Source of the DNA: Escherichia coli
GTDB lineage: Bacteria; Pseudomonadota; Gammaproteobacteria; Enterobacterales; Enterobacteriaceae
Reading direction: 5' to 3' (one strand)
Assembly: GCF_017348835.2 (NCBI RefSeq)
Contig: NZ_CP072313.1
Length of the DNA: 36,351 nt
Every line of letters starts with the position of its first letter. Positions within the stretch are counted from its first letter, which is position 1. The notes below the pieces were generated by a model, which had not been told where the DNA came from, ran no database searches, and saw nothing but the letters and a program-made list of their open reading frames with translations. The position numbers and the translations under genes are program-made. Of the stretch, positions 4,951 through 12,156 are shown piece after piece.

Positions 4951-5104
4951 TAAGCAGCCCTCATTGGCATCCCCACGACCTGAAGGACGTGGGGTTACGT
5001 CGCATTTGACAGGGATTCCCCATGTAAATCTTAAAGATTCCTGTTGAACATCTTAAATACTTCTGTAGTATACCTATAGTAATTACCTAACAGGGGAGAC
5101 AGTA

Positions 5105-5770
5105 ATGGCTATTTATGCAATATCAATATCAAAAGGTGGGGTGGGAAAAACCACATCTGCTGTACATATAATCGATGAAATAAAGCCTGACGTTGTTTTC
5201 GATCTGGATTTACACCACAGCCTGAGCATAATTAACAGACTGCGACCAGCTGAAAAAAAATGGTCAATAGTGACAGTTTCAGACAAAGCAGAATTGCTCA
5301 CATATCTGAAAAAAATAAATGACGAAGGAAAAACGGCAGTTATCGACTGCGGGGGGTTTGATGCTGATATTAACCGCATCGCTATAGCTGTTGCTGATGT
5401 GATCATCGTTCCGGCAAATGACGATGTTACTGAGCAGATCGGACTTGCCACCTTCGATGCCGTCCTCGCCGAAATATCCAGACAAACAGGCAGAAATATA
5501 CAGGCCCATGTTCTGATGTGTAAAACACAACCTAATCAGAAAAACTTCCCTGATATGGACGATACAATGAAAAAGGTTAAACATATGGCGCTACTGAACG
5601 CTCGCTTATCATATCGTAAAGGACGCTATGGTTTTACCGATTCTTTGCGTAAAGGAATGGGGATAACCCAAATTAAGCATGGTCGTAGTTCACAGGCAGG
5701 ACGAGAAGTTATAGAGCTTGTAAAAGAATTACGCGCTTTATCTTCAGATAACACAGGTTTTCCTGCATAA
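5105..5770 (+). CDS. parA: ParA-family partition ATPase (small ParF-like)
   Basis: deviant Walker A box KGGVGKTT near the N-terminus; followed by a small RHH-like gene; GGAG Shine-Dalgarno. Confidence 0.8.
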   Translation: MAIYAISISKGGVGKTTSAVHIIDEIKPDVVFDLDLHHSLSIINRLRPAEKKWSIVTVSDKAELLTYLKKINDEGKTAVIDCGGFDADINRIAIAVADVIIVPANDDVTEQIGLATFDAVLAEISRQTGRNIQAHVLMCKTQPNQKNFPDMDDTMKKVKHMALLNARLSYRKGRYGFTDSLRKGMGITQIKHGRSSQAGREVIELVKELRALSSDNTGFPA

Positions 5771-6236: not shown

Positions 6237-6491
6237 ATGAAGATTACAACTCTATCCAGTCGGGAACTGAATCAGGATGTAACCAGGGCCAAACGCGCCA
6301 CAAGTGATGGTCCCGTATTTATTACGGATCGGGGTAAAACCGCGCACGTACTTCTTAGTATCGAAGAATACAGGAAATTAACGCAACAACGGCGAACTCT
6401 TATTGACATCCTGGCTATGCCTGATGCTGATGATGTTGAATTTGAACCGCAGCGAATTAATGTTGGTTTAAAACCAGCGGAGTTTTTGTAG
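6237..6491 (+). CDS. vapB: type II antitoxin, Phd/YefM-VapB type
   Basis: N-terminal antitoxin fold pattern (VFITDRGKTAHVLLSIEEYRKL); start of the next gene abuts its stop. Confidence 0.8.
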   Translation: MKITTLSSRELNQDVTRAKRATSDGPVFITDRGKTAHVLLSIEEYRKLTQQRRTLIDILAMPDADDVEFEPQRINVGLKPAEFL

Positions 6492-6907
6492 TGTATATTC
6501 TTGATACAAATGTTATTTCTGAGCTACGAAAGGCCCGTACGGGACGTATAGATAATAATGTTGCAAAATGGGCATTGCATACAGACGCGGCAGATTTCTT
6601 TGTATCTGTTATTACCATAATGGAACTTGAACAGGGAATATTACAGGTTGAGCGTCGAGATATACGCCAGGGGATTATGTTACGTTCCTGGATGGACCAG
6701 CATGTGTTACCAGCGTTTTCTGATAAGATACTTCCTGTAGATACTGCGGTTGCCTTACGTTGTGCTCGGTTACATGTTCCCGACAGACGCAGTGAACGAG
6801 ACGCATTAATAGCGGCAACAGCTCTGGTTCATGGGATGACCGTTGTCACCAGAAATGTTGGTGATTTTGAATTAAGCGGAGTATCAATTATTAATCCCTG
6901 GGATTGA
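6491..6907 (+). CDS. vapC: PIN-domain toxin VapC
   Basis: N-terminal MYILDTNVISE PIN signature with conserved acidic residues; classic antitoxin-toxin arrangement. Confidence 0.85.
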   Translation: MYILDTNVISELRKARTGRIDNNVAKWALHTDAADFFVSVITIMELEQGILQVERRDIRQGIMLRSWMDQHVLPAFSDKILPVDTAVALRCARLHVPDRRSERDALIAATALVHGMTVVTRNVGDFELSGVSIINPWD

Positions 6908-7031
6908 TATACCTTCCCTTTTTTAGATGCTGCAAGATTACACAAAGAACACAAAAGGAATACAAAGGATTTCCATAAGACATCTATAGAATTCCTTTTA
7001 GGAATCCAATAAAAATCCCAGCGACGACACA

Positions 7032-7193
7032 TTAAATGCCAAGTTTGCGGCGTGGACTATACAGTGTGTGATTCACCACTATGAATCCTTTGTTGATCCA
7101 CTGTGTTACCTGCGCAGGTTGAACTCCGGTCAGCCTGGCGAACGATGCCTGATTCCCCCGATAGAACTTGTTGATGTATTCAATCAAAGGCAT
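7032..7193 (-). CDS. small Cro/CI-type HTH DNA-binding protein (53 aa, MPLIEYINKFYRGNQASFARLTGVQPAQVTQWINKG...), not in the ORF track
   Basis: ATG with GGAGA about 10 nt upstream on the minus strand; HTH-like QASFARLTGVQPAQVTQW. Confidence 0.5.
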   Translation of the reverse strand: MPLIEYINKFYRGNQASFARLTGVQPAQVTQWINKGFIVVNHTLYSPRRKLGI

Positions 7194-7300
7194 TTTTTAA
7201 TTCTCCGCAACAATACGAAATCATATAGTAATTTACTATATGATTTATCTTTGGCAAGTAATTAACTTATCTGATTTCTTCCATTGGTAAGGGGGCTTTT

Positions 7301-8148: not shown

Positions 8149-9204
8149 CTAGTGGGGTGGAGAAGCTGTCAGGGCCAGTTCAAGCTGACGTAGATCCCTG
8201 GCTACCAGTTGCTCTAATCTTTCTTTAGTGCACCAGTACGCTTCGTCCGGCGACATACGCTTCAGAATAAACCGTGCAATTTCGTTTCGCTGTTCATCAT
8301 ACGGCAGTTTTGCAAGGCGATTGGCACGTTTGCGCTTTGCTGCTTTCTCTCGTCGGAACTTGATGGCATCGAGAGAACGCTGCGCATACCAGCGTTTACG
8401 AGCCGAGTGAACAGAGATTTCCTCGCCCTCGCGGATAACGCCTTCTTTAATCAGTTGCAGACGGATTTCACTTTCTGCAAGGCGCTTACGTTGCTGTTCC
8501 TGAAGTTTCACCAGATCAACTCCCAGCATTTTCCAGCCAGTTTCGGTGATCCAGACGTATTTCGGCAGTCGCTGGCGGGATTCACGGTCCCATATCGTCT
8601 TTTCTGACGTTCCCAACGTGCCAAAGGAAACCTGCTCTGCCAGCAGACGGGAAAGGCGCGATACTGTGACTGCGGTTTCAGGAATAACGTTTCCCTTACT
8701 GTCTTTTGGGCTTATTTCTTCTGCCAGGCGGGAGACAGACATGCCGACAGTGTGCAATCCACGATCACAAAAACTCACAAGTACAACCCATATTGCGTCA
8801 AGCAGCCGCTGTTTCTCCGGTCGGAATTTATATTTGCGACCGACACTCTGACGTTTCAGTACATAAAATGGATGCAACGACATATGCATTCTGAGTGTGT
8901 ACTGACCAGTGACCGGGTCTTTTTTAACGAGACGATTGTAAGCGTGGCCCAACTGTCCGCCCAGCGCCTTATAGCTGTCGGGACGGAACCAGGCTGGATT
9001 CTCACACTTTGGCTTAGTGGAATGTTCACCACGGCGGCGCTTCGTGCTCCGTTTTTCCGGTTCAACCAGAAATGACGTGGCCCTGCCCGATTCGTAATCC
9101 TCCCAGAAAAGGATTTGCTCTTCGGGAGACAGTTCACTCCAGTGTAATGAAGGCCTGTTCAGGGAAGCCATAAGCAATCGCTTATGGCAGAGCTTGATTC
9201 GCAC
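8149..9204 (-). CDS. repA: plasmid replication initiator RepA (IncFII/IncI-complex RepA family)
   Basis: overall resemblance to RepA1/RepZ-type initiators; GTG start at 9204, alternative ATG at 9171; terminator and DnaA box downstream, antisense-RNA-like hairpin upstream. Confidence 0.7.
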   Translation of the reverse strand: MRIKLCHKRLLMASLNRPSLHWSELSPEEQILFWEDYESGRATSFLVEPEKRSTKRRRGEHSTKPKCENPAWFRPDSYKALGGQLGHAYNRLVKKDPVTGQYTLRMHMSLHPFYVLKRQSVGRKYKFRPEKQRLLDAIWVVLVSFCDRGLHTVGMSVSRLAEEISPKDSKGNVIPETAVTVSRLSRLLAEQVSFGTLGTSEKTIWDRESRQRLPKYVWITETGWKMLGVDLVKLQEQQRKRLAESEIRLQLIKEGVIREGEEISVHSARKRWYAQRSLDAIKFRREKAAKRKRANRLAKLPYDEQRNEIARFILKRMSPDEAYWCTKERLEQLVARDLRQLELALTASPPH

Positions 9205-9264
9205 AGTGCATTTTTACACCGGACGATATTGAATAATGAGGAAAGCATCATGTATACTGTCTTC

Positions 9265-9346
9265 CAAGGGATTTCCCCTGCCCCCATTAAACTTTGATCG
9301 GCCTCTGCCAAGAAACGGATGCAAAGTTAATGGGGGTTTGTTTTTT
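9265..9346 (+). ncRNA. candidate antisense copy-control RNA (CopA/Inc-RNA-like) in the repA leader
   Basis: plus-strand promoter -35 TTGAAT (9229-9234), 18-bp spacer, -10 TATACT (9253-9258); 15-bp stem (9281-9296 with 9322-9336) followed by T-run 9337-9346. Confidence 0.45.
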
Positions 9347-11850: not shown

Positions 11851-12156
11851 GTGAATAAATCCATTGCATTATACAGAACGTTCTTTTTATTTTTACTTTG
11901 TAGCTTTATTGCTACAAATCCGGCTCTGGCAGCGGGTGTTGGTGGGCTTGATAAAGGCACAAACTTCATCGGTGAACTGCGCCTCTGGGCGTATGGTTTT
12001 GTTGGTGGTGTGGCCCTTTTACACATTCTCTGGAAAGTATTCCAGGCATACACGGAAATGGACTCCTGGGCTGGCGTTCTCAAATCACTGATGTATGCCG
12101 CAATTGCCGGTGGTTGTGTGGTAGCTGCTGAAGCCTGCTACCAGATTTTCAAATAA
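11851..12156 (+). CDS. virB2: VirB2-like pilin (start taken at GTG 11851; the ORF track extends to 11839)
   Basis: small hydrophobic protein with signal-like N-terminus and two hydrophobic segments; GGAG 7 nt before the GTG. Confidence 0.8.
   Translation: MNKSIALYRTFFLFLLCSFIATNPALAAGVGGLDKGTNFIGELRLWAYGFVGGVALLHILWKVFQAYTEMDSWAGVLKSLMYAAIAGGCVVAAEACYQIFK

Follow-up and report, generated by a model that had tools for sequence, protein, structure and literature searches.

A solo Aca5-family gene and its predicted palindromic operator beside the origin region of an IncI2-type plasmid from Escherichia coli

The window, the whole stretch of 36,351 nucleotides from Escherichia coli analysed here (contig NZ_CP072313.1), is a plasmid of the IncI2 type, most closely related to E. 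coli plasmids of 35-38 kb, for example NZ_CP116127 and NZ_CP103482. We studied a minus-strand open reading frame (ORF) of 53 amino acids (aa), which a preliminary description of the sequence had proposed as an unannotated gene for a small Cro/CI-like helix-turn-helix (HTH) regulator. The ORF and its Shine-Dalgarno sequence were found exactly where they had been placed. The features of the locus are as follows.

7193..7032, minus strand: aca5-like gene, ATG start, 53 codons plus TAA; product MPLIEYINKFYRGNQASFARLTGVQPAQVTQWINKGFIVVNHTLYSPRRKLGI, identical to WP_001128311.1, a Cro-like HTH protein
7206-7203, minus strand: Shine-Dalgarno sequence GGAG, 9 nt 5′ of the ATG, read from the sequence and the same in both IncI2 lineages (that of the window and the canonical IncI2 plasmids)
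7218-7246, no strand: perfect palindrome (14-1-14), AAATCATATAGTAA-A-TTACTATATGATTT, an inverted repeat with 100% complementarity and a predicted protein-binding site
7223-7241, no strand: predicted core operator, ATATAGTA-N3-TACTATAT, generalised as ATAWAG-N7-CTWTAT
7257-7230, minus strand: predicted sigma-70 promoter with -35 TTGCCA (7257-7252), a 16-nt spacer and -10 TAAATT (7235-7230), from a consensus scan (9 of 12 matches)
7031..7279, minus strand: cassette of promoter, operator and gene, common to the window lineage and the canonical 58-64 kb IncI2 plasmids by pairwise alignment

An ORF of 53 aa is by itself no evidence for a gene, because chance ORFs are common at this size (47 ORFs of at least 30 aa per 4.5 kb). 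A chance ORF or a decaying, functionless remnant might also be suspected from the fact that the frame is short, is often left unannotated by PGAP and is accompanied by no cargo gene. However, the copies in the window and in canonical IncI2 plasmids differ by six synonymous and no non-synonymous substitutions, and comparison of the window ORF with prophage copies from Pectobacterium and Salmonella gave dN/dS values of 0.03-0.05, with dS saturated. The operator is perfectly conserved, and an exhaustive HMMER scan retrieved relatives of the protein in 245 clusters at 50% identity (E <= 1e-3). This substitution pattern excludes a chance ORF, and we consider this whole explanation extremely improbable. 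At least 520 PLSDB plasmids encode the protein with 100% identity, and it was found on over 1000 contigs; of 5426 complete E. coli genomes, 316 carry the cassette, and every copy is plasmid-borne. The conservation and substitution pattern thus establishes that the ORF is a real gene under strong purifying selection.

It is a conserved gene of the IncI2 backbone that annotation often misses. RefSeq annotation is uneven: many of the matched records carry no feature at this place, as the preliminary description had supposed, but some list a 'hypothetical protein', WP_001128311.1. A published Pfam-based survey of the regulators encoded by the IncI2 plasmid pHNSHP45 named three other genes, and the aca5-like gene was not among them (PMC8053102).

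The AlphaFold2 model of the protein (pLDDT 97) has an HTH fold, with helices at residues 3-11, 15-22 and 26-34 and a hairpin of two strands at 38-40 and 43-45. All of its structural matches were HTH proteins, which bears out the HTH assignment made earlier. Sequence searches of Pfam, NCBIfam and solved structures returned HTH matches below threshold only, and a search of PHROGs gave a strong match to a family without known function. No known RNA family was found over the ORF in an Rfam scan, whose single hit was a sub-threshold match upstream of repA, described below.

The more specific family assignments fared less well. A Cro/CI-type lysis-lysogeny switch or a component of a YdaS-type toxin-antitoxin system, which would be close to the preliminary description, is very improbable. 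Similarity to Cro proteins was not significant (E 0.07-0.4). The YdaS model of Pfam (PF15943) reached 17.1 bits against a gathering cut-off of 30, over residues 13-35 only, and there was no YdaT-like partner. No divergent CI-like repressor lies upstream, where the origin region and repA are found, and there is a single operator instead of a tripartite array. Lambda Cro and its family (Pfl6, Xfaso1, P22 and N15 Cro) have a CI partner, an OR1-3 array and a lysis-lysogeny context, whereas the window gene lacks all three. Against both assignments there is also a far stronger full-length match to Aca5. The preliminary description of a small Cro-like HTH regulator was right in spirit, but 'Cro/CI-like' was imprecise for a member of the Aca5 family.

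The match to Aca5 emerged from homologues in phages. In Providencia phage PSTNGR2lys, Yersinia phage fHe-Yen8-01, Erwinia phage phiEt88 and Cronobacter phage ENT47670, the homologue belongs to a small cassette in which it is the conserved gene on the downstream side, whereas the small, mostly acidic proteins encoded before it vary. In the lambdoid phages phiEt88 and ENT47670, and apparently in PSTNGR2lys, this cassette is placed on the opposite strand, with the late-gene regulator on one side and the lysis genes on the other; in fHe-Yen8-01 it adjoins the DNA primase gene. As this architecture is the layout of anti-CRISPR (acr)-aca loci, we tested the link to Aca5 with family sequences given in the supplementary material of Shehreen et al. 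2022 (PMC9410906); a further source paper for Aca5 is Marino et al. 2018. Aligned with the Aca5 reference WP_039494319.1 from Pectobacterium, the 53-aa protein showed 46% identity over 39 aa (BLASTP E 4e-12), and with a Yersinia Aca5 it showed 49% identity over 51 aa (BLASTP E 4e-17). In a profile-profile comparison (hhalign), the family of the window protein matched the Aca5 alignment over its full length with 99.8% probability (E 5.4e-30, 57 aligned columns). By sequence comparison, then, the protein is a homologue of the Aca5 family of anti-CRISPR-associated HTH repressors. The exact sequence WP_001128311.1 is already in print: Pinilla-Redondo et al. 2020 (PMC7648647) include it, without comment, in Supplementary Data 9, where the Aca5 homologues retrieved with PSI-BLAST are listed. 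The identity ties a gene of the plasmid backbone to anti-CRISPR regulation.

The window protein shares several features with known Aca5 proteins and differs in others. At 53 aa with a single HTH domain, it falls in the Aca5 size class (51-88 aa, single HTH domain; PMC9410906). Aca5 operators are inverted repeats of 8-N3-8 within the core promoter of the protein's own transcription unit, and in silico the window operator has the same geometry and position. In contrast, the inner bases of the operator read ATA-TAGT-A in the window and ATA-ATCA-A in the published motif, and the recognition helix, VTKW or VNKW elsewhere, is VTQW here, with Q in place of K (or other residues). Aca5 relatives lie 3′ of variable acr genes, such as the AcrIE8 homologue (listed in PMC7648647) upstream of the aca5 copy in phage ENT47670, whereas the window gene is solo, with neither an acr gene nor any other gene in its transcription unit. 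Finally, the usual setting of Aca5 is an accessory region of a prophage, but the window copy adjoins a plasmid origin.

The palindrome overlaps the predicted -35 and -10 elements of the gene. It is 100% conserved between the two IncI2 lineages in pairwise alignment, while its flanks diverge. The operator lies 48 nt 5′ of the ATG, with no ORF in between, and is the only full ATAWAG-type site in the window. A second operator was not found in the window; the single site with one mismatch, at 11951, falls inside an ORF and is at chance level (0.54 expected). Across the family, ATAWAG-N7-CTWTAT was present within 600 bp upstream in 31 of 31 examined loci with a [VI]TQW recognition helix, and it was enriched about 119-fold in these upstream regions, with 46 occurrences in 20 kb compared with four in 233 kb of other sequence. 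In solo copies at the ends of P2/HP1-like prophages of Pectobacterium and Salmonella, the operator stands at -44 to -49 relative to the ATG. When the promoter and the HTH gene are separated by one variable gene, the operator is found at -150 to -555 and is often paired, at a distance of 21 or 26-27 bp. Gene and palindrome thus occur together across unrelated replicons.

The motif published for acr-aca5 promoters is different. It is a near-perfect inverted repeat, ATAatCaa-N3-TtGatTAT (ATAATCAA-N3-TTGATTAT), between the -35 and -10 elements, at times with a second copy further upstream (PMC9410906), as Aca5 relatives at times have a second upstream operator here. It had no match in the window at up to two mismatches. 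We found it upstream of two of three relatives with a VTKW helix, in phage fHe-Yen8-01 (locus L005) and on a Salmonella plasmid (L015); the upstream region of the third (L007) contained neither motif. In the loci sampled, the operator type tracks the recognition helix: [VI]TQW goes with the ATAWAG motif, and VTKW, in two of three cases, with the published one. Shehreen et al. noted that the published motif was 'not frequently found' at standalone aca5 genes (PMC9410906). The standalone genes examined here fall in a clade that has another operator, which may explain this rarity. What is incrementally new in our results is a second operator class for the Aca5 family and the fixed place of the solo cassette in the IncI2 backbone.

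We conclude that the ORF most probably encodes a solo Aca5-family repressor that forms, with its promoter and operator, a self-contained cassette by the IncI2 origin and that would bind the palindrome in its own promoter and repress its own transcription. The protein, presumably as a dimer, would bind ATATAGTA-N3-TACTATAT over its own core promoter, and this binding would repress transcription of the aca5-like gene, as other Aca5 proteins do on their own operators. We infer binding, dimerisation and repression by analogy: in reporter assays, cognate Aca proteins repress acr-aca promoters through inverted repeats, and Pectobacterium Aca5 does so on its own promoter (PMC9410906). An acr gene upstream in the same operon, a feature that relatives of the gene do show, was not found in the window, where no ORF separates the operator from the ATG. 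A tblastn search of the window for a remnant of the commonest phage partner family (phrog_11282, described below) or of the downstream genes in phages gave nothing better than E 0.1. With no ORF in this interval and no trace of a phage partner, the only target in cis is the gene itself. Standalone aca genes are a recognised category (PMC9410906).

The surroundings of the cassette are given by two neighbouring genes.

9204..8149, minus strand: repA; the 53-aa gene lies downstream of it and of the origin region
6491..6907, plus strand: vapC, convergent with the 53-aa gene

Homology of the cassette with canonical IncI2 plasmids stops 1-2 nt past the stop codon (megablast boundary at window position 7031), and on the upstream side it is broken by an indel of about 93 bp. 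The conserved palindrome, the end of homology at the stop codon and the upstream indel together imply that promoter, operator and gene form a discrete conserved cassette. The place of the cassette and the end of homology at the stop codon could also suggest a housekeeping regulator of the plasmid, tied to the replicon and serving copy-number, origin or stability control. The position downstream of repA and the origin is fixed in both IncI2 lineages while the flanks differ, and in canonical IncI2 plasmids hok and pcnR come next on the same strand. However, the only full operator of the window is in the gene's own promoter and none lies near repA. The same gene and operator are also found, without the replicon, at the ends of prophages and in acr loci of phages, and the downstream hok/pcnR region is replaced in the window by the convergent vapBC genes. 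We therefore regard a housekeeping role as improbable.

The two lineages differ in several ways around the cassette. In canonical IncI2 plasmids (L003:1902-2809), hok comes after the cassette on the same strand, as does pcnR, a copy-number regulator of the ProQ/FinO family (PMC8053102); in the window, this segment is replaced by phd/vapC (vapBC). About 93 bp between the origin region and the cassette, including the GC-rich hairpin GCCCCCCAATGACGGGGGG, are present in canonical IncI2 plasmids and lacking in the window (7262-7300, compared with L003). The window keeps a truncated version of this region, with a predicted terminator-like hairpin at 7278-7295 on the plus strand. The spacer between vapC and the aca5-like gene (6908-7031) is unrelated to canonical IncI2. 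It holds imperfect inverted repeats rich in GGAAT/ATTCC, pairing 6953-6973 with 6979-6999 and 6895-6910 with 7009-7024; these may be the 'vapBC motif repeats' of the preliminary description.

The solo cassette could also act beyond its own promoter. A protein held at a steady level might also switch off operons of incoming phages or plasmids that carry the same operator, a speculative 'anti-anti-defence' function that extends the autorepressor reading. According to this proposal, solo Aca5 would shut incoming anti-CRISPR or anti-defence operons with ATAWAG-N7-CTWTAT and so protect the host and hence the plasmid. The IncI2 protein has the same recognition region, GVQPAQVTQW, as the operon-type relatives L027, L028 and L039, whose promoters contain the same operator. 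Solo copies with the operator are under purifying selection both at prophage ends (Pectobacterium, Salmonella, Klebsiella) and on IncI2 plasmids. Solo Acas have been proposed as repressors of foreign acr operons (PMC9410906). The window gene, standalone, autoregulatory in our reading and carried by a resident element, resembles the solo Aca and AcrIIA1-NTD 'anti-anti-CRISPR' repressors. This function has been demonstrated for AcrIIA1-NTD and AcrVIA1 regulators (cited in PMC9410906), which are systems other than Aca5 or the window plasmid. On the other side, no target on an E. coli phage or plasmid was identified. Every copy of the cassette in E. coli belongs to the plasmid itself. Most of the upstream genes are putative anti-defence genes. 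We treat the trans-acting role as a tentative and rather doubtful extension.

IncI2 plasmids are the main carriers of the colistin-resistance gene mcr-1. It seems unlikely, though conceivable, that on these plasmids (including mcr-1 carriers) and in many enterobacterial prophages a solo Aca5 of the second operator class serves as a standing trans-repressor of the anti-CRISPR or anti-defence operons that rival phages and plasmids with this operator bring in. If this were true, 'anti-anti-defence' by mobile elements would be a form of competitor exclusion, and the phrog_11282 family and several acidic proteins of 55-116 aa, described next, would form a pool of undiscovered anti-defence proteins.

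The combination of a VTQW-type Aca5 and ATAWAG-N7-CTWTAT may serve as a search tool for candidate anti-defence genes upstream in phages. The commonest gene between an ATAWAG-type operator and aca5 in phages belongs to phrog_11282, acidic proteins of about 150-165 aa without known function, with N-termini such as MKLFHGS or MIITHAS and a C-terminal LGYD motif. It was found at L004:3022-3501, L005:3011-3499, L006:907-1365, L028:1747-2247, L030:2522-3001, L036 and L039:2568-3011. The family is a candidate anti-defence protein and is not among the Acrs tested in PMC7648647. AcrIF21, which has a similar length and pI, was considered as its identity and rejected; published AcrIF21 starts with MTSIKTIEYKGN and is unrelated. 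In viral contigs, at least six more small ORFs, unrelated and mostly acidic (55-116 aa), take the place of an acr gene before a VTQW-type Aca5 (L027:460-627, L029:2744-2992, L031:1059-1301, L032:2722-2982, L037:2725-2988, L044:2633-2983 and L045:2711-2983), and they are candidate anti-CRISPR or anti-defence genes.

In Pectobacterium, Salmonella and Klebsiella, solo aca5 genes with the operator were also observed at the extreme ends of P2/HP1-like prophages (L008-L013, at about 5001-5162; L016-L026). They stand beside tail-fibre genes and abut host genes (pflB, asnB and the rpoD/ung regions), and many viral contigs stop inside or just short of the aca5 gene. A 149-aa protein begins with an Aca5-like domain, and its gene overlaps the start of a tyrosine recombinase gene (L014:4001-4450 in Serratia plymuthica p75, L040 and P0077); two tandem ATAWAG-type operators, at about -92 and -66, lie upstream. 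The prophage-end position and the recombinase neighbour in Serratia p75 had raised the idea of an excisionase or recombination-directionality role, which found no support in the window, where the gene has no recombinase next to it. The domain also occurs as a tandem duplicate (set P0051, P0052, P0073, P0075, P0080 and P0112) and, in the same set, at the C-terminal end of proteins about 150 aa long whose N-termini are unrelated and in one case HNH-like. These proteins with a duplicated or C-terminal domain could be Acr-Aca fusions or merges from gene calling.

Just 5′ of repA in the window, an Rfam match to PK-repZ was seen at 9184-9341 on the minus strand (30.6 bits against a gathering threshold of 44, E 8e-4). 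This sub-threshold match is consistent with replication control by a pseudoknot and an antisense RNA of the I-complex type.
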